From Candidatus Saccharimonadota bacterium (GTDB lineage: Bacteria; Pseudomonadota; Gammaproteobacteria; Enterobacterales; Enterobacteriaceae): a stretch of 32,000 bases of DNA. The position numbers and the translations under genes were made by a program. The first letter of the stretch is position 1, and every line of letters starts with the position of its first letter. A model generated the notes under the pieces. The model ran no database searches and was not told the DNA's origin. It worked only from the letters and a program-made list of their open reading frames with translations. The stretch spans positions 450,001-482,000 of the forward strand of contig NZ_OZ060402.1 in assembly GCF_964059045.1 (NCBI RefSeq), given 5' to 3'. Shown here one piece after another: positions 2,429-30,698 of this stretch.

Positions 2429-5029
2429 ATGATTAACAATTATAATCCAGCAGAAATAGAAAAATTTGTTCAAAAATATTGGAAAAAAAATAATACATTT
2501 CAAGTTACAGAAGATCAAAAAAAAGAAAAATATTATTGTTTATCAATGTTGCCATATCCATCTGGAAATTTACACATGGGACATGTAAGAAATTATACAA
2601 TTAGTGATGTCATTTCTAGATATCAAAGAATGATAGGTAAAAATGTTCTACAACCAATAGGATGGGATGCTTTTGGATTACCTGCTGAAGAAGCCGCTAT
2701 TCAAAATAAAATCAATCCTGCAGATTGGACTAAAAAAAATATACAATCTATGAAAAAACAATTATTACTATTAGGATTTAGTTATGATTGGAACCGAGAA
2801 ATCAATACTTCAAATCCAGAATATTATCGTTGGGAACAATGGATATTTAAAAAATTATATCAAAAAAAAATCGCATATAAAAAAACAGCCCTGGTTAATT
2901 GGTGCCCTAATGATAATACAGTTTTAGCTAACGAACAAGTAATTGATAAAAAATGTTGGAGGTGTAATTCATTAGTTACTCAAAAAAATATTTCCCAATG
3001 GTTTTTAAAAATAACTCATTATGCTGAAGAATTATTAAATCATTTAGATAAACTAACTGGATGGCCGAAAGATGTAAAACAAATGCAAAAAAATTGGATT
3101 GGAAAATCACAAATAATAGAAATTAATGTATTTGTTAGTCATAATAATGAAAAATTAAAAGTATATACTAATCGATTAGATTATCTTATGGGAGCTACTT
3201 TCATAGCTATTTCTACTTGTCATCCATTGTCAAAAAAATTAAAAAAAATAAATAAAAATATTAATTTTTTTTTAAAAAATTCTTGTTCTAATTTAGATTA
3301 TGCTAGTAATCAAAAAGAATTTAATAAAAAAGGAATTAATACTAATCAATTTATTATACATCCATTAACAAATCATTTAATACCAATATGGATTGCAAAC
3401 TTTGTTTTAAAAGAATATTCAGTTAACTCAATTATTTGTACTCCAGCACATAATCAAACTGAATGGGCTTTCGCAAAAGAAAATAAAATATTAATCAAAT
3501 CAGTGATTCTTGATATTAATAATGAAAACCCAGATATTACTCAAAAAGCAACAATAAATACAGGAATTTTATATAATTCTCAACAATATAATGGTTTAAA
3601 TAATAAAACAGCATGTGCTGTAATATTTCAAACATTAAAAAATAAAAAAATAGCAAAAAAAAAAATAATTTTTAAAATTAAAGATTGGGGGGTATCAAGA
3701 CAAAGATATTGGGGAACCCCTATACCAATGGCTATTAGTGAAGATGGTACTATACATACTATACCTGATGATCAATTACCAGTAATGTTTCCAAAAATAA
3801 AATACACAAATCAAATCAAAAATAAATTAAAACCATATAAACTCTCCGAATGGAAAAAAATATTAATTAATAATAATCAAGCATTAAGAGAAACAAATAC
3901 ATTCGATACATTTATAGAATCTTCATGGTATTATGCTCGTTATACTTCACCTCATGATCAAAAATATATGATTAATCCTATTGCAGAAAAATATTGGTTA
4001 CCAGTAGATCAATATATTGGTGGAATAGAACATGCTACAATGCATTTAATATATTTTAGATTTTATCATAAATTATTAAGGGATTTTGGATTAGTAACAT
4101 CGGATGAACCAGTAAAAAATTTATTATGTCAAGGAATGGTATTATCAGATGCTTTTTATTACTTTGATGATAATAATAAAAAAATTTGGATCTCGCCTAA
4201 CCAATTAAAAATTGAAAAAGACAAAAAAGAAAAAATTATTCAAATTACACATAAAAATAAAAAACAAATTGTTCATGCAGGTATGATTAAAATGTCTAAA
4301 TCAAAAAAAAATGGCGTTGAACCAGAAAAAATTATTCATCAATATGGAGCAGATACACTAAGATTATTTATTATGTTTGCAGCACCAATAGAAATGTCTT
4401 TAGAATGGAAAGAACCAGGAATTAATGGATTACATCGTTTTTTAAAAAAATTATGGAAATTAACACATGATTATATTAATCTAAAAAATATTTACATTAA
4501 TTTAAATTGGAATAATCTGAATGATTTTCAAAAAAAAATAAAAATAAAAATTAATCAAACAATTATAAAAGTAACAGATGATATTGATCGCAGAAAAATA
4601 TTTAATACTGCAATTGCTGAAATTATGAAATTAGTTAATATATTAACTAAAATACCATTAATTGAAAAACAAAATAAAAATTTAATGTATTACGCTTTAA
4701 TTAATATTATAAAAATGTTATATCCATTTACACCTCATATATGTTTTATAATGTGGAAAAAAATAACAGGAAAATATGATATTGATAATCATAGATGGCC
4801 TAATACTAAAAATCTCATTATTAAAAATAATAATTATTCTATTATTTTTCAAGTTAACGGGAAAACACGTCAAATTATTAATGTTGATCAAGAAAACATA
4901 ACACAAGAAAAAATTATATCCATAGCTATTAATGAACCAAAAATTAAACAACAAATTGAAAGTTATAATATAAAAAAAATTATTTATATTAAGAATAAAT
5001 TATTAAATATAGTACTTATTAAAAAATAA
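2429..5029 (+). CDS. leuS: Leucine--tRNA ligase (LeuRS)
   Basis: Colinear with E. coli LeuRS over the whole length. HIGH (HMGH) and KMSKS motifs are present, as are WGVSRQRYWG and FDTFIESSWYY. I chose ATG 2429 because MINNYNPAEIE aligns residue for residue with E. coli MQEQYRPEEIE. The ORF-track GTG at 2414 is an alternative start. Confidence 0.95.
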   Translation: MINNYNPAEIEKFVQKYWKKNNTFQVTEDQKKEKYYCLSMLPYPSGNLHMGHVRNYTISDVISRYQRMIGKNVLQPIGWDAFGLPAEEAAIQNKINPADWTKKNIQSMKKQLLLLGFSYDWNREINTSNPEYYRWEQWIFKKLYQKKIAYKKTALVNWCPNDNTVLANEQVIDKKCWRCNSLVTQKNISQWFLKITHYAEELLNHLDKLTGWPKDVKQMQKNWIGKSQIIEINVFVSHNNEKLKVYTNRLDYLMGATFIAISTCHPLSKKLKKINKNINFFLKNSCSNLDYASNQKEFNKKGINTNQFIIHPLTNHLIPIWIANFVLKEYSVNSIICTPAHNQTEWAFAKENKILIKSVILDINNENPDITQKATINTGILYNSQQYNGLNNKTACAVIFQTLKNKKIAKKKIIFKIKDWGVSRQRYWGTPIPMAISEDGTIHTIPDDQLPVMFPKIKYTNQIKNKLKPYKLSEWKKILINNNQALRETNTFDTFIESSWYYARYTSPHDQKYMINPIAEKYWLPVDQYIGGIEHATMHLIYFRFYHKLLRDFGLVTSDEPVKNLLCQGMVLSDAFYYFDDNNKKIWISPNQLKIEKDKKEKIIQITHKNKKQIVHAGMIKMSKSKKNGVEPEKIIHQYGADTLRLFIMFAAPIEMSLEWKEPGINGLHRFLKKLWKLTHDYINLKNIYINLNWNNLNDFQKKIKIKINQTIIKVTDDIDRRKIFNTAIAEIMKLVNILTKIPLIEKQNKNLMYYALINIIKMLYPFTPHICFIMWKKITGKYDIDNHRWPNTKNLIIKNNNYSIIFQVNGKTRQIINVDQENITQEKIISIAINEPKIKQQIESYNIKKIIYIKNKLLNIVLIKK

Positions 5030-6111: not shown

Positions 6112-6755
6112 ATGAATTCAATATATGCAATATTTGGTGGTTCATTTGATCCTATTCATTATGGACATTTAAATATAATAAATAAAATTATCAAAGAAAT
6201 AAAACTTAAAGAAATAATAATTTTACCTAATTATAAACCAATATATCGAAATAAATCGATTACGAATATTATTCATCGAATTAAAATGATCAAATATGCT
6301 ATATCTAATCAGATTCAATATAAAATTAATTTAATTGAAGTAAAAAAAAAATTATTTTTACTATAAACACATTAAAAATAATAAGATCAGAAATAGGAGC
6401 AAAAAAACCTATTGTTTTTATCATAGGAGAAGATAATTTAATTAATATACAAACTTGGAAAGAATGGAACAAATTATTAAACTTTTGCCATTTAATAATT
6501 TGTCCTAGAAAAAATAACAACTTAAAATTAAATCAAATATTAAAAAAATGGATCCAGAAAAATAAAATTACTAATATAAATTTATTAAAAAAAAGTGCAT
6601 CTGGATATATTTTTTTTTCAAAAATTAATTGTATTAATATTTCTTCAACAGTAATCAGAAATATGTATTATCAAAATCAAAATGAAAAAAATTTAGTACC
6701 TCAAAAAGTTTTAAACTATATAAAAAAACATAATCTATATCAAGATCCTTCATGA
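6112..6755 (+). pseudogene. nadD: Nicotinate-nucleotide adenylyltransferase NadD, split by a frameshift inside an A10 run (6342-6351) and possibly still expressed via slippage
   Basis: The N-terminal 84 codons (6112-6366, GGSFDPIHYGH motif) stop at TAA 6364-6366. The rest of the protein continues without stops in the frame whose codons start at multiples of 3. It reads KKKIIFTINTLKIIRSEIGAKKPIVFIIGEDNL...NISSTVIRN...VLNYIKKHNLYQDPS* with TGA at 6753-6755. One extra A gives about 214 aa, against 213 in E. coli. Confidence 0.9.
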
Positions 6756-6829
6756 TATATATAAAAAATAAAAATTTTCACTGAAAAATTCTATTTATTT
6801 TTAACATTATTTAATATAAAACATGATTT

Positions 6830-7060
6830 ATGATAAAATATAATAAAAAAATCAATATAGTAGGTTTGTTCTGTCCGGATCCTATAATACTTATTCGCCA
6901 TACTTTAAGAAAAATGAACAAAAATAATATATTACTAATAATAGCTGATGACCCTACAACAAAAAGAGAAATTCCAATATTTTGTCATTTTATTGGACAT
7001 CAACTATTAAAAAAAAATATTAAAAATATACCATATCAATATTTTATACAAAAACGTTAA
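6830..7060 (+). CDS. tusA: Sulfurtransferase TusA (SirA/YhhP)
   Basis: 76 aa. GLFCPDPIILIR, LLIIADDPTTKREIP.FC and IPYQYFIQK match E. coli TusA GLRCPEPVMMVR, LLIIADDPATTRDIPGFC and LPYRYLIRK. The catalytic Cys in the CPxP motif is present. Confidence 0.9.
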   Translation: MIKYNKKINIVGLFCPDPIILIRHTLRKMNKNNILLIIADDPTTKREIPIFCHFIGHQLLKKNIKNIPYQYFIQKR

Positions 7061-7250
7061 AAAAATCATTTTATATAATTAATGTATATAAAATTGATAT
7101 GAAATATTATCAACAGAAAAATTAAACAAATGCAATATTTATATTATCAAAAATAATATTAAAAATTAATATGATTAATATATTTTTATACTGTAATAAT
7201 AAAAATTATTAATAATCTATTTAAAATAGATATTTAATTTAAAAATATTT

Positions 7251-8369: not shown

Positions 8370-8457
8370 TTCTTCAGTATCACCAACTGTTATTAAATTT
8401 TATTTTCAAAAATATTATGTATAATTTTATTATGTTATAATAATTAATAATTTATTT

Positions 8458-8509
8458 AATTATTAATTATTATCAGTAATTAATAATTATTAATTATTAA
8501 TTATTAATT
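8458..8509. repeat. Short degenerate tandem array of the heptamer AATTATT in the asd-yhgN divergent spacer
   Basis: Read directly. There are two copies at 8458-8471, one degenerate copy (AATTAAT) at 8478-8484, and three copies plus a partial at 8485-8509. It is low-complexity AT sequence. Confidence 0.6.
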
Positions 8510-9011
8510 GATATAATAAATATAAATATTAATAGTTTCAATAAAATATTAAAAAATATTTTTTTAAAAAAATCATAAAGATAAATATTATCTTTAATTA
8601 AATTAATATGTAGAATACATTATAAAATAAAATATAAATATTTATATATATTTTAAAAATTCATAAAATAATCAATGTATATTAATTATAAAAATAATTA
8701 TTATAATTAATATATTTATGTTAAGTTTTCAATACACAGTATCAAAAAAAAATTAATCAATATTATCATTATTGTATTTTTTTTTAAAATATATCATAAA
8801 AACAAAAATATTTAGTATTCTATGATTTGTTTATAATAATGATCAAACTTTTAATTCAAAATAATAATTTTGTATATATTTTATATAGTATCTAATTATT
8901 ATTTATAAAATATTAAAAATTTTTATTGTGCATTTCAATGTTATATTTGAAACAATAAAATAGATATATATATTTGATATATTTATACTAATATATTTTA
9001 GGATAAAATAA

Positions 9012-9605
9012 ATGGATGAAATGATTTCTACTACTATACTACTCATATTTATTATGGATCCAATAGGTAATTTACCTATTTTTATGTCTATATTAAAAAA
9101 TATAGAACCAAAAAGAAGACAATTAATATTAATAAGAGAAATGATAATAGCTTTATTAATCATGTTATTATTTTTATTTGGAGGAGAAAAAATATTATTA
9201 GTTTTAAATTTAAAAACTGAAACTATTTCTATATCAGGAGGAATTATTTTGTTTTTAATAGCAATAAAAATGATTTTTCCAAATGAAGAAAATAATAATC
9301 AAACTGTGATGAATCAAGATGAACCTTTTTTAGTTCCATTAGCTATACCATTAGTAGCAGGTCCTTCATTACTAGCAACATTAATTTTATTATCTCACCA
9401 ACATCCTACTCAATTGTTTTACTTATCATCATCATTACTTATCGCATGGAGTATTACTGTAGTAATATTATTATCATCAGGATTTTTTTTAAGAATATTT
9501 GGAGCCAAAGGAATTAATGCTTTAGAACGACTGATGGGATTAATTCTTATTATGTTATCTACTCAAATGTTTTTAGAAGGTATAAGAACATGGTTTAAAA
9601 ATTAA
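9012..9605 (+). CDS. yhgN: MarC-family inner membrane protein (YhgN)
   Basis: 197 aa, the same length as E. coli YhgN. LLI.IMDP.GNLPIFMS.LK..EPKRR, SISGGIILFLIAIKMIFP, EPF.VPLAIPLVAGP and NALERLMGLIL are conserved. It is divergent from asd as in E. coli. Confidence 0.9.
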   Translation: MDEMISTTILLIFIMDPIGNLPIFMSILKNIEPKRRQLILIREMIIALLIMLLFLFGGEKILLVLNLKTETISISGGIILFLIAIKMIFPNEENNNQTVMNQDEPFLVPLAIPLVAGPSLLATLILLSHQHPTQLFYLSSSLLIAWSITVVILLSSGFFLRIFGAKGINALERLMGLILIMLSTQMFLEGIRTWFKN

Positions 9606-13538: not shown

Positions 13539-16500
13539 ATGTTAATTATATATAAATCAAATCAATTTAAAAAATTATTAAATAAAGTATGTCAAATTAT
13601 ACAAAAAGAACCACTTAAAAATCCTTTGCAAAATGAATTATTTATAGTCAATAACAAAGAAACAGAAAAATGGATGAAAATCCTTATTGCAAAAAAGATT
13701 AGTATTTGTTCTAATATTCAATTTTATCAACATGAAGCATTCATATGGAAAATAATACATCGTCTCTTACCTGAAGATTATCAAAAATATAATTTTCATC
13801 GGGATATGATTTTTTGGAAAATATTATCTATCATTCAAAAATATAATAATAAATTTATTTTTGATACAAAAATAAAAAACAAAAAAATACAAAAATTTAA
13901 TTTTGCATATTATATGTCTTATTTATTTCATCAATATTTAATTTATAGACCAGAATGGATTAATTGTTGGGATAAAAATATTAATATAAATATTTCATCT
14001 AAATCTCAATTATGGCAAAAAAAACTTTGGACCATGATATTAAAATATAATCATAAAATTAATCAAAACAATAATCATTTTTACTATATAAAAAAAAAAA
14101 TTATTGATATATTTAATCATAAAAAAAATATTATCAAAAATTTTTTACCTATGCGAATATTTATTTTTAATACATCAAATATTCCTCATAATTATATAAA
14201 AATAATAAATTCAATGAGTAAAATATATAAAATATATATTTTATTAAATATAAATCATAATTATAATATCAACTATCAAAAAAAAATAAAAAATGAAAAT
14301 AATTTATTTTTATATGAAAAAAAATATATTTTTAATCATATTCAATATTTATATTCTATGAATCATAAAACATATAATTTATTTTCAAAAATAAAAAAAA
14401 ATAATTTACTACAAAAAATACAAAAAAAAATTTTATGTAATCAATATAATAACACAATTAAAAAAAAATATATTCATCCAAAAATAGATACATTCCTTTC
14501 AACTGATAATTCAATTAGTATACATATTTGTCATTCTTTAAAAAGAGAAATAGAAATATTACATAATAACTTACTAAATATATTACAAAAAAATAAGATT
14601 ATTCATCCTCAAGATATTATAGTATTATCTATCGATATCAATATTTATGTACCATTCATTCATGCAATATTCAATTCTGCTCCAAAAAATTATTTTATAC
14701 CATTTACAATAGCTAATTCATGTATATCTAAAAAAAATACAATATTTTATACATTTGAAAAACTGTTAAATATTGCTAATAGCATATTTGAAAATGAAGA
14801 AATATTATCATATTTGTCATTACCAATATTATTAGAACAATTTAAAATTAATTTAGAAGAATTAAAAATATTAAAAAAATGGATAAAAAATACCAATATA
14901 AAAATAGGATTTGATAAACAACATTTAAATCAAATATTAAATATAAATACAAATTACAATAGTTGGAATTTTGGAATTGATCGCATGCTTCTAAATTATG
15001 CTATTAATAACAAAAAATTCATATGGAAAAATACTGTTCCTTACAATGAAATTAATTATGAACGCTCTGAATTAATTTCTAAGCTAAACCAATTTATAAT
15101 TTTATTAAATAAATGGAGAAAAATACTTTCCATTCCTAAAACTCTTAAAAAATGGTTACCATTACTATCAGAAATAATTGAAGATTTTTTCCCTATTAAA
15201 TATTTGCAAAATAAAGAAATACTTTTTTTAAAAAAAATATGGAATAACATTATTTCTAATGGACTTAAATCTCATTTTGAAAAAAAAATTACAATAACAA
15301 TATTGCAATCAATGATTGCAAACCAATTGAATAAAAAAGAAAATTATTCTAATTTATTTTCAGGAAAAGTAAATTTTTGCAATATAAATTTATTAGAAAA
15401 TATACCATTTCAAGTTATATATTTAATAGGTATAAATGAGGATGTTTACCCTAGAAAAATTGATTCTATATCATTCAATTTAATAAAAAAATTCCCAAAA
15501 ATAGGAGATAAAAATCATAGATTATATGATCATTATATATTTCTAAATTATTTATTAAATGCACAAAAATATTTTTACATTAGTTGTATAAATTTAAAAC
15601 AACAAAATATAAATAATATTTCTTCATCAATCCTCATTGAACAACTAATTAATTGTGTTACTAACCATTTTCAATTAATTGATCAAAATTATATAACAAA
15701 TCAATATTTTAATAAAATAAATGACAATAAAAAAAAAATTATTAATCATTTATATCATTTTGACAATATTCCTTATGGTGAACAAGATAATTTTAAAAAA
15801 CAACATTTTAATCAAAATTTTAAAAATCAAAATTGCAATATAACATATATTCAAAAACAAACAGAAAAAAAAACAGATCAAAAATTATTCATCATTAAAT
15901 CTAATAAAATTGATATAATAAATTTTATACAATTTTGGAAAAATCCTATAAAATTTTTATTCTTTAATCTTTTAAAAATAAAAACAAAAATAATAAATAA
16001 AAAAGAATGTAATATAGATTATTTTTCTATAAATTCTAAAAATATTTATTGTATTAAACAAAAACTATTAGATTATTTAGTCTATAATAAAAACATAAAA
16101 ACCCTCTATGAATTTTATAAAAAATCAGGCATATTACCATATGGTAATTTTGGACAATATATTTGGGATCAAATAAAAAAAGAAATGATTGAAATATATA
16201 AAATGATATTCAAATTAAGAAATCAACCTGAAAAAAAAATAATCAATATTAAAATCAATCAATATCAGTTATATAATTATGAATTAAAAGAAATACATAA
16301 AATAGGATTAATACGTTGGAAACCACATGTAATTAATATTCAAGATAAAATGTCTTTGTGGATTGAACATTTAATATATTGTTTTTTAAATGGTGAAGGA
16401 AATAGTTATATCTTTGGTAATAAAAAAAGTAATTGGGTTTATTCAAATTTATCTTCAAAAAAAGCATTTGATTATTTAGAAAAATATATTAAAGGTTATT

Positions 16501-16781
16501 TAATAGGAATTAATCAACCATTAATGCTAACTCAATCCGGTTTTGAATGGATAAAATCCCAATACGACAAAAAAAATAAAATAATTTTTAATAATGAAAC
16601 TAAAAATAAAATGAGCAAAAAAAAATTTTTTAATGAATGGAATGGAAATATAAATAAAAATGGTGAAAAAGATAATATATTTATTAGAAAAATTATTACA
16701 GAAATAAATAAAAATGATTTTATTAATTTATGCAATATTGCTAAACAATGGTTTTTACCTATATTAAAAAATCAATTGTAA
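13539..16781 (+). CDS. recC: Exodeoxyribonuclease V gamma subunit RecC
   Basis: 1080 aa and colinear with E. coli RecC. MLIIYKSN matches MLRVYHSN. FIW, YL.YRP.W, SI.ICHS..REIEILHN.LL, P.DIIV...DI..Y.PFI.A.F.SAP, GIDR/LTRMLL.YA, the region around the FxxVxLIGxNEDVYPR-like FQVIYLIGINEDVYPR, and the C-terminal WIEHLIYC are also conserved. Confidence 0.93.
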   Translation: MLIIYKSNQFKKLLNKVCQIIQKEPLKNPLQNELFIVNNKETEKWMKILIAKKISICSNIQFYQHEAFIWKIIHRLLPEDYQKYNFHRDMIFWKILSIIQKYNNKFIFDTKIKNKKIQKFNFAYYMSYLFHQYLIYRPEWINCWDKNININISSKSQLWQKKLWTMILKYNHKINQNNNHFYYIKKKIIDIFNHKKNIIKNFLPMRIFIFNTSNIPHNYIKIINSMSKIYKIYILLNINHNYNINYQKKIKNENNLFLYEKKYIFNHIQYLYSMNHKTYNLFSKIKKNNLLQKIQKKILCNQYNNTIKKKYIHPKIDTFLSTDNSISIHICHSLKREIEILHNNLLNILQKNKIIHPQDIIVLSIDINIYVPFIHAIFNSAPKNYFIPFTIANSCISKKNTIFYTFEKLLNIANSIFENEEILSYLSLPILLEQFKINLEELKILKKWIKNTNIKIGFDKQHLNQILNINTNYNSWNFGIDRMLLNYAINNKKFIWKNTVPYNEINYERSELISKLNQFIILLNKWRKILSIPKTLKKWLPLLSEIIEDFFPIKYLQNKEILFLKKIWNNIISNGLKSHFEKKITITILQSMIANQLNKKENYSNLFSGKVNFCNINLLENIPFQVIYLIGINEDVYPRKIDSISFNLIKKFPKIGDKNHRLYDHYIFLNYLLNAQKYFYISCINLKQQNINNISSSILIEQLINCVTNHFQLIDQNYITNQYFNKINDNKKKIINHLYHFDNIPYGEQDNFKKQHFNQNFKNQNCNITYIQKQTEKKTDQKLFIIKSNKIDIINFIQFWKNPIKFLFFNLLKIKTKIINKKECNIDYFSINSKNIYCIKQKLLDYLVYNKNIKTLYEFYKKSGILPYGNFGQYIWDQIKKEMIEIYKMIFKLRNQPEKKIINIKINQYQLYNYELKEIHKIGLIRWKPHVINIQDKMSLWIEHLIYCFLNGEGNSYIFGNKKSNWVYSNLSSKKAFDYLEKYIKGYLIGINQPLMLTQSGFEWIKSQYDKKNKIIFNNETKNKMSKKKFFNEWNGNINKNGEKDNIFIRKIITEINKNDFINLCNIAKQWFLPILKNQL

Positions 16782-16880: not shown

Positions 16881-19800
16881 ATGAATTCTCAATCATCTCC
16901 TATAAATGTTTTTAATTTTAATTTTAACCAAAATACATTAATTGAAGCTTCTGCTGGAACAGGAAAAACTTTTACAATAGTAATATTATATTTACGATTA
17001 TTATTAGGATTAGTTAATATAAACCATGTATCTTCAAAATTATCTATAGAAAAAATATTAATTGTTACATTTACACAAACAGCTAAAGAAGAAATAAAAG
17101 ATAGAATTAAAAAATATATTCATGATTTAAAAATAGCATGTATTGAAAAAAATACCAAAATATTTATTTTACAAAAAATCATGAAAGAAATTAAAAATTT
17201 TAAAAAAGCAATTATGATATTAAGTCAAGCAGAAAAAAAAATTGATTTAGCTGCAATTTATACTATTCATGGTTTTTGTCATAAAATATTAAAAACTCAT
17301 TATTTTTATTCAAAATTATTAATACATGATCATTTTATAGAAAATAATTACAAAATATATTTAAAAGCAACTAATATATTTTGGAAAAAACATTGCCATT
17401 TATTACCATATGAAATTTCAAAAATTATTTATCAAGAATGGTTAAATGAAGAGAAACTATTAAAAATTATTTATCCATTATTCAAATTTTCATCAATCAA
17501 ATTAAATACTAATATATTAAAAAACACAAATATTATATTGTTTCATAAAAATTTAATTATAAAAATTAAAAAATTTAAAATACTATGGTTGAAAAATATA
17601 ATTCAAATTAATAATTTTTTTCATAATTTAAAAATCAACTTATATATTTATAATAAAACAAATTTAAATAGATGGATTAATATTATTAATAAATGGTCAA
17701 ATAATTCTACTGAAAACTATATAGTTCCATCTGTATTAAATTATTTTAACTATATTACTATAAAAACCAATATTTTAAATAAAAATGAAAAAATACCAAT
17801 TTTTTTTAAAAAAATCCAATATTTTTTAAAAATAAATTTTTCAATTAAAGAAATTATAATAGTGAATGCATTACAAAAAATACCTGAAATTATTCAAAAA
17901 GAAAAAAATAAAAAATTATTTTATGAACATAACGATTTGATTATTTTTTTAAATAAATTTCTTAAAAACAAAAATATAATTAATAATATACAAAAACAAT
18001 ATCCTATTGCTTTTATTGATGAATTCCAAGATACTAATTTAGAACAATATAAAATATTTAAAACAATATATCATCAATCTAAAAAATCAAATTTAGTTAT
18101 TATTGGTGACCCAAAACAAGCAATTTATAGTTTTCAAGGTGCTGATATTTTTGCTTATATCAAAGCAAAAAATGAAACTAAAAAACATTATTATCTTACA
18201 ACTAATTTCCGTTCATCAAAAAATATGGTTCTTAGTGTAAATATGTTATTTTCAAGAATGAATAATCCATTTATATTTAATCAGATATTATTTCAACCAC
18301 TATTATCTAATACAGAAAACCAAAATATAAATTTTACAATAAATGGATTATTACAACCTGCATTAAATCTTGTCATAGAACCAACAATAAATAAAAAAAA
18401 ATATCCATATTGGACAGCAAGACAATGTGCAGTTAATATTTTTAATTGGATAAATTATTCTAAAACAAATCTATCTAACATTCAAATTCACAAAAAAATT
18501 CATAAAGTCACTGAAGAAGACATAGTTATTCTTGTTAGAAATAAAAATGAAAGTAAAATAATACAATTGGAATTAGATAAAATTAATATTAATTCTATAT
18601 ATATATCTAATAAAAATTGTATTTACGACATACCAGAAGCTATAGAAATATTATATATATTAATATCATTATTAGATTTAAGAAATGAACAAGCATTTAT
18701 AAATGCCTTTTCTACAAGTATCATGCAAAAAACTATTCAAGAAATAAAAAATGTCCAATATATTCATAAATATCGATCTATTTGGATAAAAAAATTTTAT
18801 ATATATTTATCAATTTGGAATAAAAATGGAATTTATGCCATGTTGAAAAAAATTACTGAAGAACAAAAAACTTCTTTAACACAAAAATGTTTAAAAAAAA
18901 CCAAATCCACTATTAATAATATTTTACATATAGGAGAATTACTACAAACTAAAGAGATAGAAAATGTAGATAAATATAATTTAATACAATGGTTCAAAAA
19001 AAAAATTAAAAATAAAAAAGAAATTATTTCAAAAGAAGAAATATTAAGACATCATAATATAAAAAATGCTATTAAAATTATTAATATACATGCATCTAAA
19101 GGATTAGAATTTTTTATTGTTTGGATACCATTTGCAATAAATTATATTAAATCACAATATCCAATTTATCATGATCAAAATCATAATTTAATTTATGATT
19201 TAAAAAATAAAAATAATAGTATAAAAAATGCGGAAAAAGAAAGAATAGCAGAAGATATCAGATTATTATATGTAGCTATAACTCGATCTATAGTACATTG
19301 TTGTATAGGAATAGAAACATCAAAAATCAAAATAAAAAAAAATACCAATACAACCGATATACATTGTAGTGCAATAGGATATATTTTACAATTAGGTAAA
19401 AAACTAAATAAGCAACAATTTGATACTATTATTAATAATTTAAAAAAAGAAACATGGATTAAAATAACCACAAAAGAACAATATTTGCAAAAACAATATA
19501 AAAATAATCATATAAATATTAATAATCATATTCCAGAAAAAAAATATAATATTAATAAAATATGGACTATCACTAATTACACGCAATTAAAAAAAGAAAA
19601 TGAAATTATACTGAATACTAAAAACCAAAATATTATAGATATAAAATTTAAAAAAAATAAAATATTAAAAAATGATTTATATAACAATCACAATTTTATA
19701 AAAGGATCATTATCCGGTCAATTATTGCATAATATATTAAAAAAAACTAATTTTTCAGAAAATATGCAATCTGAAACAATTTGCAAACAATTAAAAAAAT

Positions 19801-20381
19801 ATAATTTCAATATAAATTTAGAACCATTACTATCATCTTGGATATACAATATTTTTCATACAATATTAGACAATAAAAATTTTTCTTTATCTCATTTAAA
19901 AAAAAACGAATATATAAAAGAATTAGAATTTTTATTACCTATTCAAAAAACATTAAACTCTAGTCAATTAAATTATATTACAAAAAAAAATGATCCAATA
20001 TCAATTGCATCTCCTAATTTAACATTTAACAATAAAAAAGGCATGATTAATGGATTCATTGATTTAATATTTTATCTCAATAAAAAATATTATATATTAG
20101 ACTACAAATCTAACTGGCTAGGTGAAAATAATAAATACTATTCATCATTAAATATAAAAAATGAAATGATTAAACATCGATATGATTTACAATATCAAAT
20201 ATATTCTATAGCTTTGCATAGATATTTAAAACAAAGAATTAAAAATTATACATTTAAAAATTATTTTGGGGGTATTTTTTATTTTTTTATCAGAGCTGCT
20301 GATGGAAGTAATAAAAATAATGGGATTTTTTATCAAGCTATACCAAAAAATTTAATTCAAAAATTAAATCAAATAATATAA
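16881..20381 (+). CDS. recB: Exodeoxyribonuclease V beta subunit RecB (helicase-nuclease)
   Basis: 1166 aa. Helicase motifs are present: Walker A IEASAGTGKTFTI, AFIDEFQDTN, IGDPKQAIYSF.GADIF, TNFRS and IHASKGLEF. The nuclease motif GFIDLIF....KYYILDYKSNWLG and RYDLQYQIYS.ALHRYL are intact. Confidence 0.95.
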   Translation: MNSQSSPINVFNFNFNQNTLIEASAGTGKTFTIVILYLRLLLGLVNINHVSSKLSIEKILIVTFTQTAKEEIKDRIKKYIHDLKIACIEKNTKIFILQKIMKEIKNFKKAIMILSQAEKKIDLAAIYTIHGFCHKILKTHYFYSKLLIHDHFIENNYKIYLKATNIFWKKHCHLLPYEISKIIYQEWLNEEKLLKIIYPLFKFSSIKLNTNILKNTNIILFHKNLIIKIKKFKILWLKNIIQINNFFHNLKINLYIYNKTNLNRWINIINKWSNNSTENYIVPSVLNYFNYITIKTNILNKNEKIPIFFKKIQYFLKINFSIKEIIIVNALQKIPEIIQKEKNKKLFYEHNDLIIFLNKFLKNKNIINNIQKQYPIAFIDEFQDTNLEQYKIFKTIYHQSKKSNLVIIGDPKQAIYSFQGADIFAYIKAKNETKKHYYLTTNFRSSKNMVLSVNMLFSRMNNPFIFNQILFQPLLSNTENQNINFTINGLLQPALNLVIEPTINKKKYPYWTARQCAVNIFNWINYSKTNLSNIQIHKKIHKVTEEDIVILVRNKNESKIIQLELDKININSIYISNKNCIYDIPEAIEILYILISLLDLRNEQAFINAFSTSIMQKTIQEIKNVQYIHKYRSIWIKKFYIYLSIWNKNGIYAMLKKITEEQKTSLTQKCLKKTKSTINNILHIGELLQTKEIENVDKYNLIQWFKKKIKNKKEIISKEEILRHHNIKNAIKIINIHASKGLEFFIVWIPFAINYIKSQYPIYHDQNHNLIYDLKNKNNSIKNAEKERIAEDIRLLYVAITRSIVHCCIGIETSKIKIKKNTNTTDIHCSAIGYILQLGKKLNKQQFDTIINNLKKETWIKITTKEQYLQKQYKNNHININNHIPEKKYNINKIWTITNYTQLKKENEIILNTKNQNIIDIKFKKNKILKNDLYNNHNFIKGSLSGQLLHNILKKTNFSENMQSETICKQLKKYNFNINLEPLLSSWIYNIFHTILDNKNFSLSHLKKNEYIKELEFLLPIQKTLNSSQLNYITKKNDPISIASPNLTFNNKKGMINGFIDLIFYLNKKYYILDYKSNWLGENNKYYSSLNIKNEMIKHRYDLQYQIYSIALHRYLKQRIKNYTFKNYFGGIFYFFIRAADGSNKNNGIFYQAIPKNLIQKLNQII

Positions 20382-20409
20382 TTATATTATAAAAATAATG
20401 ATAATATCT

Positions 20410-22238
20410 ATGAATATAAAAAATATATTAATATTGACTTTTAAAAAAAAAAAATTAGATCTATTGATCTATATTTTGCATTATATATTGGACAAAAACA
20501 ACATAATTTAATTATACTGGCTGCAGCATTAACAAGTTATGCAATTGGAAATGGTCATATTTGTTTACCAATTAAAATTCTTAAAAAAAATATTCTTAAT
20601 TTAGAACATGTTTTATTATTAAAAAATAAAATATCTAATTTAATTGGACCTGAAAAGTTATGGCATGAAATTTTTTTAAAAAGTGATACTATTGGTAATG
20701 AATTTATAATAAAACCATTAATTTTATATAATAATTGTTTATATTTATATAATACTTGGAAAGCCGAACAATCAATATTAAATTTTTTGTATCAAAAAAA
20801 TAATATATATATTCAAAATCCTATCCAATATAAAAAAATATTAAACAATTTATTTCAAGGTGATAAAAAAAATTTTCAAAAAATAGCTGTTGCTATGGCA
20901 ATGATGCAAAAAAAATTATTTATTATTGGAGGACCTGGTACAGGAAAAACTACTATTATTGCTAAAATTATTATAGCATTAAATAAAATAAATTTAAAAC
21001 CAATTAAAATAAAACTAGCTGCTACCACAGGTCAAGCCGCTTCTCATTTAACGCAATCATTAAACAATACATTATTGCAACATTCATTAAAAAACAATAC
21101 TAAAAATTTAATCTATACAGCTACAACCATTCATAAATTAATAGGAATTAAATCTGATTGTAATCGTGTAAAATTTCATAAAAAAAACACAATAGATGTT
21201 GATACTTTAATTATTGATGAAAGCTCTATGATTGATTTATTTATCATGGAAAAAATAATTCAAGCATTACCAAAAAACGCACAAGTAATTTTTTTTGGAG
21301 ATATAAATCAATTACCAGCAATAGGAAATGGGACAATTTTAAAAGATATTTGTTGTTTTGCTCAAAATAAATTTAATAAAATTTCAAATTTATTAAATTT
21401 AATCACTAATTATAATATAAAAAATAATAAAAATTCTAATTTTATTAATGATCATGTTTGTATTCTAAAAAAAAATTATAGATTTAACAATAATTCTGGA
21501 ATTCATAAATTATCACTATCTTTAATGAATCAAGATCAAAAAATATTTTTAAAAATAAAAAATAATTATTTTAAAAATGTCAAAATATATACAATTAATT
21601 CTCAAAAAAAATATATATATATGTTAAACAATATTATTAAACAATATTCTATTTATTGGGAAAAAATTTTTAATCAGGAACCAATTAAAAAAATAATTAA
21701 AACTTTTTATGAATATAGATTAATAGGTGCAATACGTCATGGTATATTTGGAATTGAAGATATCAATAAAAACATAGAAAAAAAAATGCAAAAAGAAGGA
21801 TTTATTCAATATAAAATTAAAAATAATTATATAGATTACTTAGGAAAACCTATTATCATTACTAAAAATAATAAAATGTTAGGATTATTAAATGGAGATA
21901 TTGGTATTATGCTCTATAATCATAACAATTTAGAAGCATGTTTTTTGTCAAACAATGATAAAATTAAAAAAATACCAATAAATATTCTGCCAGAATATGA
22001 AACAGCCTGGGCTATGACAATACATAAGTCCCAAGGTTCAGAATTCCTACATACTGCATTAATTTTACCTAATATTATGAATTTATTATTAACAAAAGAA
22101 TTACTCTATACTGGAATTACTAGATCTAAAAAAACATTAATCATATATTCTGAAAAAAAAATATTATTACAAACCATGAAACAAAAAACGAAACGTTTTT
22201 CTCAAATTTCTAATAATATATTAAAATATCAATCATAA
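20410..22238 (+). pseudogene. recD: Exodeoxyribonuclease V alpha subunit RecD, split by a frameshift inside an A12 run (20443-20454) and possibly still expressed via slippage
   Basis: ATG 20410 opens a 33-codon ORF (MNIKNILILTFKKKK...) that stops at 20509-20511. From the A-run onward, the frame with codons starting at multiples of 3 is open to TAA 22236-22238. It reads IRSIDLYFALYIGQKQHNLIILAAALTSYAIGNGHICLP...GGPGTGKTT...IIDESSMIDL...TIHKSQGSEF. With one extra A the N-terminus aligns without gaps to E. coli RecD (R17, D20, F23-A24-L25 coincide). The total is about 609 aa against 608. The ORF-track start (TTG 20787) is an internal Leu codon. Confidence 0.9.
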
Positions 22239-22298: not shown

Positions 22299-23630
22299 TT
22301 AATTTATAATATCTAACATTAATATTTTAGATTTTCTTTGATAATTGTACATTTTTTTCTTACTTTCTGGTAATAAATTTAAATCAATTGGAATAAAACC
22401 TCTTTCTTGAAACCAATGAATACTTTGAATAGTTAAAACAAAAATTTTTATTAAACCTAATATTTGAGCACGATATATTATTTTTTTAAGTAAAATATCT
22501 CCTCTAGAAGAACTTCTATAATCTGGATGAACAACTAAACATGCCATTTCTCCAATTTTATCTTCCATAAAAGGATATAATGCAGCACAACCAATCGTTA
22601 AATTATCCTGTTTAATAATAGTAAATTTATTAATTTCAATTTCTAATTGTTTTCTTGAACGACGAACTAAAATACCTTGTTTTTCTAAAGGACGAATTAA
22701 ATCTACAATACCTCTAATATCATGTATAGTAGCTAACCTTACCTGTTCGGTAGATTCCATCACAATTTGCGTTCCAATACCATCTCTTGAAAATAATTCT
22801 TGTACTAAAGCACCATTAGTTTTATAACTAATTAAATGACTACGTCGAACCCCTTGTTTACAAGCTTCGATTGAACCACGTAAAAACTTTACTGTACTAG
22901 AAAAAAAATCTTGTTTTTTTTTTAATAATTCTAATATTTTTATGACTTCATTAGGAAATAATTCAGAAATAATAACATTATTTTTATCTAAAACCCCTTG
23001 TTCACTACAAAAACCAATCATTTTTTCTGCTTGCAATTGTATGGCTAATTGTGTCGCAATTTCTTCAGAAGTTAAATTAAAACTTTCCCCTGTCACTGAT
23101 GATGCTATTGGACCAATTAAGACAATCGAACGATTTTTTAATTGACTAAATATAGTTTTTTTATCAATTCTTCTTACACGACCACTATGACAATAATCAA
23201 CACCATTATCAATACCCAATGGTTGAGCAATTATAAAATTACCACTAACAACATTAATACGAGCACCTTGCAAAGGAGTATTGCTAAGACTCATAGATAA
23301 TCTAGCTGTAATTTCTAATTGTAATCTACCTGCTTCTTGTTTAATACATTTCAGAGTATCAATATCAGTCACACGTGTATATTTATGATATACTGATTTC
23401 ATATTAAATTGAGATAAATTAGCGTTAATTTGTGGTAAAGCACCATAAACAACAATTAAATTAATACCTAAACTATGCAACAATCCAATATCATTTATAA
23501 TTTCTGTAAAATTTTCATGGTTAATGACTTCTCCTCCTAACATAATTACAAATATTTTTCCTCTATGAGCATTAATATATGGAACTATATGTCGAAAACC
23601 ATTTACTAATTCTGTACTTCTATTTTTCAT
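22299..23630 (-). CDS. argA: N-acetylglutamate synthase (amino-acid acetyltransferase)
   Basis: 443 aa, the same length as E. coli Arg[126 protein letters not shown] and [10 protein letters not shown] are near-identical. It is convergent with recD as in E. coli. Confidence 0.97.
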
Positions 23631-29763: not shown

Positions 29764-30099
29764 TTAATGAATCATCAAATGATGATTTAAATTATACATA
29801 ATCCAGATAGAACCAGAAATAATAATTAATATAACTATAATAGTAAAAATAATAAAAACTATGCTCCAAATGTCATAATCAATTGTATTAAAATTAAAAA
29901 AATATCGAAAATGAACTAAAATTTGCAAAAAACAAAATATTAAAATAATACTGATTATTATTATTTTTGATAAATGATATTTTGTTACTAAATAAAATGG
30001 AATTAAAGTAAAAATCATTGATAATAATAATCCTATACAATAAAATTTTTTTAAATCATTAATTAATTGTAAAGAATAATTATTTTTTTTAAAATTCAT
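29764..30099 (-). CDS. cyoD: Cytochrome bo3 ubiquinol oxidase subunit IV
   Basis: I trimmed the 138-aa ORF-track call to the internal Met (MNFKKNNYSLQ...), giving 111 aa against 109 in E. coli. The C-terminus GSIWIMYNLNHHLMIH matches GSIWIMWNLNYNMMVH. This ATG (30099-30097) overlaps the cyoC stop in a TAATG junction, so the upstream 27 codons lie inside cyoC. Confidence 0.85.
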   Translation of the reverse strand: MNFKKNNYSLQLINDLKKFYCIGLLLSMIFTLIPFYLVTKYHLSKIIIISIILIFCFLQILVHFRYFFNFNTIDYDIWSIVFIIFTIIVILIIISGSIWIMYNLNHHLMIH

Positions 30100-30698
30100 T
30101 AACAAACTCCAAATAAATATACAAAAGTAAATAAAAAAATCCATATAATATCTAAAAAATGCCAAAATAAACCCAAACATTTCATTCTAGTATACATGAC
30201 ATTATTTAAACCTATTTTTTTTAATTGTAATAAAATCACTATAATCCATATTAATCCTATTATAATATGTATTGCATGTAATCCAATTAAAGTAAAATAA
30301 GCAGACAAAAAACCACTTCTCTGAGGTCCATAATTTTTAGATAATAATTTACAAAATTCATATATTTCAATACTAACAAAACATAAACCAAACAAAAAAG
30401 TGTTAGACAACCAAAAATAAATTATTTTTTTTTTAGATTCTAAAAAACTAATAACAGCCATACCAAAAAAAAACGAACTAAATAATAAAACAAAAGTTTC
30501 TGCTAACACCAATGGTAAATTTATGATGATCATTCCATAAATGTTGTAATCTAAATCATTTAACAATACTGCATAAACAGCAAACATCGTTGAAAAAATA
30601 ATACAATCACTCATTAAATACAACCAAAAACCTAATAATATTTTTTTATTGACAACATAATTACTATTCAAACTATTATTTTTATTTAAAAATTGCAT
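30099..30698 (-). CDS. cyoC: Cytochrome bo3 ubiquinol oxidase subunit III
   Basis: 199 aa against 204 in E. coli. GFW.YLMSDCI.F...FA.Y, ET..LL.SS...G.A, YF.L.G.H..H...G and LFWHFLD.IWI are conserved. It lies between cyoB and cyoD. Confidence 0.92.
   Translation of the reverse strand: MQFLNKNNSLNSNYVVNKKILLGFWLYLMSDCIIFSTMFAVYAVLLNDLDYNIYGMIIINLPLVLAETFVLLFSSFFFGMAVISFLESKKKIIYFWLSNTFLFGLCFVSIEIYEFCKLLSKNYGPQRSGFLSAYFTLIGLHAIHIIIGLIWIIVILLQLKKIGLNNVMYTRMKCLGLFWHFLDIIWIFLFTFVYLFGVC

Follow-up and report, generated by a model that had tools for sequence, protein, structure and literature searches.

In the Buchnera aphidicola symbiont of Eriosoma grossulariae, the recD gene is one nucleotide short within a run of twelve adenines (A12). 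The gene, which encodes the RecD subunit of the RecBCD enzyme, lies in a stretch of 32,000 nucleotides (nt) from contig NZ_OZ060402.1 (positions 450,001 to 482,000), referred to here as the window; coordinates are those of the window, and features are on the forward (+) strand, unless stated otherwise. The uninterrupted A12 tract at 20443-20454 breaks the reading frame near the start of recD, leaving a short leader in one frame and nearly the whole of the helicase in another. The sequence observation, a one-nucleotide shortfall within a poly(A) tract, is confirmed. As argued below, the gene appears to be maintained. Non-programmed slippage of RNA polymerase on the tract, possibly with a contribution from the ribosome, probably corrects the frame, and both this slippage and its product, a RecD made at reduced dosage, are what we infer from the gene and from published work on similar tracts.

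The recD frame break

As assigned from translation and homology, the recD leader (20410-20454) consists of an ATG and 14 codons (MNIKNILILTFKKKK) in frame 0, with the tract at its end. The open reading frame (ORF) that begins with ATG 20410 reads MNIKNILILTFKKKKLDLL..., and a further in-frame ATG is present at 20398. The A12 homopolymer specifies a lysine tract at RecD codons 12-15 and is the site of the frame break; one continuous frame requires A13. When the frame is not shifted, translation runs into a TAA at 20509-20511, and the product without correction has only 33 amino acids (aa). The body of recD (20445-22238) is found in the -1 frame and comprises 597 codons plus the stop codon (TAA 22236-22238). 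This frame is shut just 5' of the tract by a TAA at 20442-20444 (the translation reads INIDF, stop, KKKIRS), and it contains no ATG, GTG or TTG upstream of TTG 20787. The body encodes a Walker A motif (GGPGTGKT, 20928-20951), the sequence DESSM (within 21213-21230), and the sequence TIHKSQGSEF (22017-22046). A scan of its 597 codons revealed neither a premature stop nor another indel, and all helicase motifs are preserved. The lesion is a single indel inside an uninterrupted sense-strand A run of at least about 9-10 nt, in a gene that is otherwise whole and keeps its motifs.

Adding one A to the tract (A13) generates a RecD of 609 aa, with a predicted junction peptide LTFKKKKIRSIDLYF, a predicted tryptic peptide IRSIDLYFALYIGQK, and a predicted N-terminal peptide MNIKNILILTFK. 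The restored protein aligns with E. coli RecD (PDB 1w36_D, 608 aa) from residue 5 to residue 600 of both (E 2e-114). Within the N-terminal roughly 60 residues, this alignment has zero gaps and zero offset, and residues R17, D20, F23, A24, and L25 are identical in the two proteins. The TIGR01447 recD profile matches residues 12-601 of the restored protein with 510.5 bits against a cut-off of 310. The PRK10875 model aligns residues 2-604 with its positions 2-614 (of 619); the score, 566 bits, falls short of the strict cut-off of 671.

These results bear out a first-pass annotation of the window, made from the letters alone. It had placed the split of recD inside the A12 tract, had given the end of the ATG 20410 frame and the TAA that precedes the open body, and had described a gapless A13 restoration with the five shared residues, a length of 609 aa against 608, and no other lesion in the gene. 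Translation and the alignment with 1w36_D agree with it on each of these counts, the body being 597 codons long. The length is supported in addition by a submitted protein, CAL4324514.1, considered below. It had also named the tract as the longest homopolymer it noticed. A count over the entire window shows that this is so; the runner-up is A11, at 3655 and at 14090.

The A12 tract by itself is not unexpected in DNA of this composition. The window has ~19% guanine plus cytosine (GC) and 45.6% A, and at 45.6% A from 1.4 to 2.7 A runs of at least 12 are expected per 32 kilobases (kb), where 1 is observed. The non-random part is that the sole frame break of recD falls within the tract, which matches a prediction of replication slippage.

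The tract in related genomes

The nearest relatives, judged by RecD, are Buchnera of Eriosoma lanigerum (60% identity) and of E. harunire (56%). In both, the tract is in frame and consists of an interrupted A8, within GTT AAA AAA AAC AAG ATT AGA in E. lanigerum and TTC CAA AAA AAA CAA ATT ACT in E. harunire. The corresponding sequence of E. grossulariae, ACT TTT AAA AAA AAA AAA TTA GA, is 1 nt shorter than both, precisely at the tract. The leader peptide has homologous counterparts at the RecD N-termini of these relatives, MKIKYILEQAVKKNK (E. lanigerum) and MKNIIIQAFQKKQ (E. harunire). Over the 15 leader and tract codons 8/15 residues are identical to those of E. lanigerum, similar to the 60% seen over the whole protein.

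Two other Buchnera lineages are also one A short at this site. In the recD gene of Buchnera of Pemphigus populi (locus L005, 1501-3329), the tract at 1527-1536 is A10 where 11 are needed; a TGA follows directly after the tract, and the gene is otherwise intact. In Buchnera of Protaphis terricola (locus L006, 1501-3320), the tract at 1526-1536 is A11 where 12 are needed, again in an otherwise intact gene. An in-frame A11 is present at the homologous site in two more Buchnera genomes (L007 and L008). The comparison of tract lengths between strains and populations that the first-pass annotation had suggested as a check, when made between host species, shows interrupted, in-frame tracts in the Eriosoma relatives and a missing A in Pemphigus populi and Protaphis terricola. 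The lysine tract of recD appears, from these sequences, to be a recurrent slippage hot spot, with at least three independent lineages one A short.

The longest tract seen at this site is an in-frame A14, encoding KKKK, in a Logan contig (ERR13998916; L009, 327-340). The RecD homologue on this contig has 46% identity, and its assignment to Buchnera is presumed. In a protein search, neither a Logan contig nor any other independent one reached 90% identity to RecD. A scan of genome contigs with the restored RecD gave Actinobacillus and Myxococcales loci, and no Buchnera, among the matches listed.

The N-terminus of RecD and its public annotation

Two protein models, both from a single contig of 606,948 bp, are available for this gene. 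CAL4324514.1, 'RecBCD enzyme subunit RecD [Buchnera aphidicola (Eriosoma grossulariae)]', has 609 aa and is letter-identical to the A13 restoration. In contrast, the RefSeq model, WP_367676830.1, has 594 aa (MRSIDLYF...), with the ATT at 20454-20456 read as Met. If this model were correct, initiation at AUU 20454 would yield a RecD without its first 15 residues, and no recoding would be needed. AUU is a genuine but rare start codon in bacteria (that of E. coli infC, for example), and A-rich leaders can support initiation. However, the residues that the model removes are encoded by the upstream-frame ORF, with a conserved ATG and with homology to the relatives. At least 10 residues (median 13) precede the RefSeq ATT column in 114/121 homologues; those with fewer than 10 comprise fragments and two further ATT-start models, which likewise belong to frameshifted tracts. 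In the E. lanigerum orthologue, as modelled by AlphaFold (mean predicted local distance difference test score, pLDDT, 90.7), the omitted part corresponds to a confidently predicted helix, residues 2-12, and the lysine tract forms the loop that precedes helix 18-28. Furthermore, an in-frame ATT arises by chance at ~5% per codon at this composition, and no Shine-Dalgarno-like motif is present upstream of the ATT. Since nearly all homologues have residues at this place and a helix is modelled there in the orthologue, ATG 20410 is taken as the true start and the ATT model as an annotation work-around; genuine initiation at the AUU is very improbable.

The RefSeq models of all three frameshifted recD genes start at an ATT in or beside the tract. 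These ATT codons lie at 20454-20456 in the window (MRSIDL...), at 1524-1526 in L005, and at 1512-1514 in L006; the other two products begin MKKKMIND... and MKIFRKKKII.... The shared choice of ATT seems to be a systematic work-around in annotation and is no evidence of AUU initiation.

The data set of Manzano-Marin et al. (bioRxiv 10.1101/2022.08.28.505559) includes E. grossulariae. In the methods of these submitters, genes frameshifted at A- or T-homopolymers were annotated as functional, after Tamas et al. 2008, and such tracts were curated by hand with the frameshift kept (bioRxiv 10.1101/2022.08.28.505559). The text of the preprint does not mention recD. The recD lesion is nevertheless already captured in the submitters' annotation, so its novelty was overrated in the first-pass annotation, and the case is a standard, textbook example of a lesion class described in Buchnera in 2008. 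What is added here is modest: three Buchnera lineages each independently lack one A in the same RecD lysine tract, with a RefSeq ATT start in every case.

Probable maintenance of recD

At the base composition of the window about 1 random codon in 10 is a stop, yet the 597-codon body of recD is open. To compare evolutionary rates, the share of the window branch in a three-taxon tree was calculated for proteins; such protein branch shares were preferred over the ratio of nonsynonymous to synonymous substitution rates (dN/dS) because the 52-60% identity among the taxa implies that synonymous sites are saturated. This share is 0.24 for RecD, 0.26 for RecB, and 0.20 for RibH. The RecD branch is therefore not accelerated relative to RecB or RibH, in a test that is weak with three taxa and high divergence. 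In addition, each Buchnera recovered has a recD of nearly full length (562-620 aa), among them symbionts with 424-442 kb genomes. RecA is missing from Buchnera (PMC1193525), so that in our reading RecBCD presumably acts there as exonuclease V/helicase, not in recombination.

A second gene of the window has the same type of lesion. The nadD gene (6112-6755) is split by an A10 tract at 6342-6351, and the addition of one A yields a NadD of 214 aa that matches nadD models end to end. The restored NadD is identical to the submitters' protein, CAL4324338.1, and RefSeq has a 110-aa fragment only. The first-pass annotation had noted that recD and nadD need the same correction, which the A10 tract and the submitted protein substantiate. 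The nadD gene functions in the synthesis of nicotinamide adenine dinucleotide (NAD) and is essential in E. coli. The presence of the same type of lesion in nadD counts as evidence that recD is maintained. Together, the open body, the homologous leader, the unaccelerated branch, and the nadD parallel argue that recD is a maintained gene.

In contrast, if recD were a recent pseudogene, the deletion would be real and without useful correction, RecD would be in the process of being lost, and the cell would rely on RecBC alone or do without exonuclease V. Null mutants of recD are viable in E. coli. The lesion is also lineage-specific, and gene erosion in Buchnera classically begins with poly(A) indels, according to PMC3017870, which cites Moran et al. 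2009. With RecA absent, a role in recombination is moot (PMC1193525). However, a gene undergoing erosion is difficult to reconcile with the lack of a second lesion over 597 codons at 19% GC, with a RecD branch that is no faster than that of RecB or RibH, and with the near full-length recD of every Buchnera recovered. Likewise, three independent lineages have the same single lesion in genes that are otherwise intact, and, on published rates, some in-frame mRNA is expected from an A12 template. Loss of recD is thus considered quite unlikely, and a maintained gene that depends on slippage is the preferred interpretation.

A proposed route from the broken frame to RecD

In the proposed mechanism, an interrupted tract of the A8-C-AAG-A type, as present in the relatives, would have become a pure homopolymer by substitutions and would then have lost one nt through replication slippage. 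The ancestral frame would have needed 13 nt at the tract, which is now A12. During transcription, RNA polymerase would slip on the A12 template, creating an mRNA pool of mixed tract lengths. Transcripts with one additional A (A13), as well as the -2 and +4 classes, would join the leader that starts at ATG 20410 to the 597-codon body, and their translation would give a RecD of ~609 aa. If tRNA-Lys slipped by -1 on A AAA AAA during translation, an identical protein would result, and such slips may contribute. Unslipped transcripts would give the 33-aa peptide only. RecD would consequently be made at reduced dosage, and it would assemble with the RecB and RecC produced from the intact upstream genes.

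For long poly(A) tracts of Buchnera and Blochmannia, slippage has been reported to correct 12-50% of the transcripts (PMC5009743), and a value of about 30% is given elsewhere (PMC3017870). The correction that the first-pass annotation had proposed, one A more in the mRNA or a -1 slip of the ribosome, agrees with the inference accepted for poly(A) tracts of these symbionts (Tamas et al. 2008, as relayed in PMC5009743 and PMC3017870), and the submitters' methods invoke it as well (bioRxiv 10.1101/2022.08.28.505559). In Buchnera transcripts, 151/157 insertions occur in homopolymers; at A/T runs single-base insertions dominate and become exponentially more frequent as the run lengthens, up to 11 nt (PMC5574713). 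Because the insertion rate rises with the length of the run, an A12 template should give appreciable A13 mRNA.

The same protein would also result from a dedicated, programmed -1 ribosomal frameshift of the dnaX type, at a site that evolved as a regulated recoding signal. The tract does contain a slippery heptamer, A AAA AAA, in the right register, and the shift needed is -1. Directly 3' of the tract, at 20456-20471, a 6-bp hairpin can be drawn (AGAUCU...GAUCUA region; codons AGA TCT ATT GAT CTA). However, the fold of 106 nt has a z-score of -0.74, no better than shuffled sequences, and the arms of the hairpin are not complementary in E. lanigerum or E. harunire. Neither GGAG nor AGGA is found in the 30 nt upstream of the tract, and the nearest relatives are in frame. 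Thus, the hairpin is probably incidental, and a programmed signal at this site is extremely improbable; non-programmed slippage is preferred.

Several points weigh against a maintained, slippage-dependent recD. Conservation among relatives is the criterion of Wernegreen et al. 2010 for selection on such frameshifts (as cited in bioRxiv 10.1101/2022.08.28.505559). The tracts of E. lanigerum and E. harunire are in frame, so the frameshift of recD is absent from its two nearest relatives, this sign of selection is lacking, and the lesion could be very recent. A three-taxon rate test at 52-60% identity would miss a recent relaxation of constraint. Traverse and Ochman saw zero frame-restoring transcription errors in Buchnera LSR1 (PMC5574713). 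Finally, the three frameshifted recD assemblies all come from one project and one pipeline, which used Illumina 2x251 reads, 12 cycles of polymerase chain reaction (PCR), and SPAdes with --only-assembler (no read correction).

A 12-cycle PCR library assembled in this way could miscount a homopolymer, in which case stutter in PCR and Illumina sequencing, together with the assembly, would have turned a genomic A13 into A12, and recD would be intact. The tract is indeed the longest run of the window, the three recD lesions and that of nadD are all one A short and all from one project, and neither the leader nor the body of recD has decayed. However, in the same assembly the A11 runs in leuS and recC and 6/7 of the coding A10 runs are in frame; the A11 that L007, another genome of the project, has at the homologous recD site is in frame too. 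With these other long runs in frame, systematic under-calling is not seen. In addition, the submitters' manual curation kept the frameshift. A miscount is therefore unlikely, and slippage on a genuine A12 is retained as the preferred explanation.

A broader idea is that the tract at RecD codons 12-15 acts across Buchnera as a recurrently switching, hypermutable "dosage dial," with selection tolerating or favoring a low, slippage-limited level of RecD in cells without RecA. Distant lineages have uninterrupted runs of 10-14 A at this loop position of RecD. All four lesions (the three in recD and the one in nadD) are one A short, each needing an added A, and A addition is the commonest error direction of the Buchnera RNA polymerase (PMC5574713). 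This idea is speculative, and such a dial is distinctly improbable.

Genomic context and composition of the window

The genes of the window include ybeY, corC, leuS, holA, nadD, asd, yhgN, pgk, fbaA, mscS, recC, recB, recD, argA, tRNA-Met, ribH, ribD, nusB, a gene for a major facilitator superfamily (MFS) transporter, tusE, and cyoEDCB. Both recC (13539-16781; TIGR01450, 621 bits) and recB (16881-20381; TIGR00609, 909 bits) are intact and score above the respective cut-offs. They are co-oriented with recD, whose ATG 20410 lies 29 nt past the recB stop codon, and their position directly 5' of recD is the operon context of the gene. A scan of 20100-20700 for promoters and terminators gave none above shuffled sequences.

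Downstream of recD, argA (22299-23630) sits between recD and ribH, as it does in E. lanigerum. In Buchnera of E. harunire (L004, 4834-6893), the annotation leaves the interval from recD to ribH without a gene; argA may have been lost or become a pseudogene there.

Over the whole window, A runs of at least 8 (85 observed versus 32-48 expected) and at least 9 (42 versus 15-23) are in excess, and runs of at least 10 (9 versus 7-11) and at least 11 (3 versus 3-5.5) are not. An excess at 8-9 but not at 10 or more would be compatible with selection against runs of slippage-prone length. Among the sense-strand A runs of at least 10 within genes, 2/10 break the frame.

Non-coding gaps of about 500-640 bp are present at 1805-2413, 6756-7250, and 8370-9011, and a tRNA and Rfam search of these gaps gave zero matches. 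An 86-aa ORF at 8903-9163 on the reverse (-) strand had no match in a family search. These gaps and this ORF may be remnants of eroded genes. A third frameshift was suspected where the ORFs 29764-30180 and 30099-30698 overlap, but these are cyoD and cyoC, one ORF call having been over-extended.

Comparison with known systems

An annotation of this genome should include recD and nadD as present and, by inference, slippage-dependent genes; neither is to be listed as a pseudogene or as the truncated or fragment protein of RefSeq. This alters what is deduced about how the symbiont repairs its DNA and metabolizes NAD. The recD case opens no new question. It joins a catalogue which indicates that, at long poly(A) tracts of extremely AT-rich symbionts, intact and frameshifted genes differ by degree, and the recD tract, with its missing A in three lineages, provides a natural test set for slippage as a function of tract length.

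The E. coli dnaX gene, in which a -1 frameshift occurs at A AAA AAG (PMC1851650), shares with recD a lysine slippery heptamer and the direction of the shift. However, dnaX has an upstream Shine-Dalgarno-like element, a downstream hairpin, and two functional products, whereas the recD site has no significant or conserved stimulator and its 0-frame product is a 33-aa peptide. The tssM gene of Citrobacter rodentium (PMC4256274) resembles recD in that slippage of the polymerase at a homopolymer overcomes a premature interruption of the gene, the process proposed here for recD. It differs in that the bacterium is a free-living pathogen, the rescue has been demonstrated experimentally, and two length variants occur (PMC4256274).

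Other parallels come from insect symbionts. In Blochmannia vafer, dnaX, dnaG, and pth have single poly(A) or poly(T) indels in genes for replication and protein synthesis (PMC3017870). These genes are unaccelerated and have been read as slippage-corrected at reduced dosage (PMC3017870); the relative rate of recD is alike, although the symbiont genus and the genes are different. The poly(A) class of Tamas et al. 2008 and Wernegreen et al. 2010 has the same characteristics as recD: a single indel in a sense-strand A run of at least 10, a conserved gene that is otherwise intact, extreme AT-richness, and presumed slippage, with Buchnera being the same genus. The tested cases of this class are cell-wall genes of an aphid endosymbiont and a histidine-biosynthesis gene of an ant endosymbiont (PMC5009743), whereas recD is a different gene. 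Furthermore, the ancient Blochmannia frameshifts are conserved, whereas that of recD is absent from the closest relatives. A further counterpart is the poly(A) frameshift in pheA of Buchnera of Periphyllus and other Chaitophorinae (bioRxiv 10.1101/2022.08.28.505559), which comes from the same group, the same data set, and the same annotation policy. The pheA frameshift is kept across a clade; the recD frameshift is specific to one lineage, yet it recurs independently at the homologous site in three distant lineages.

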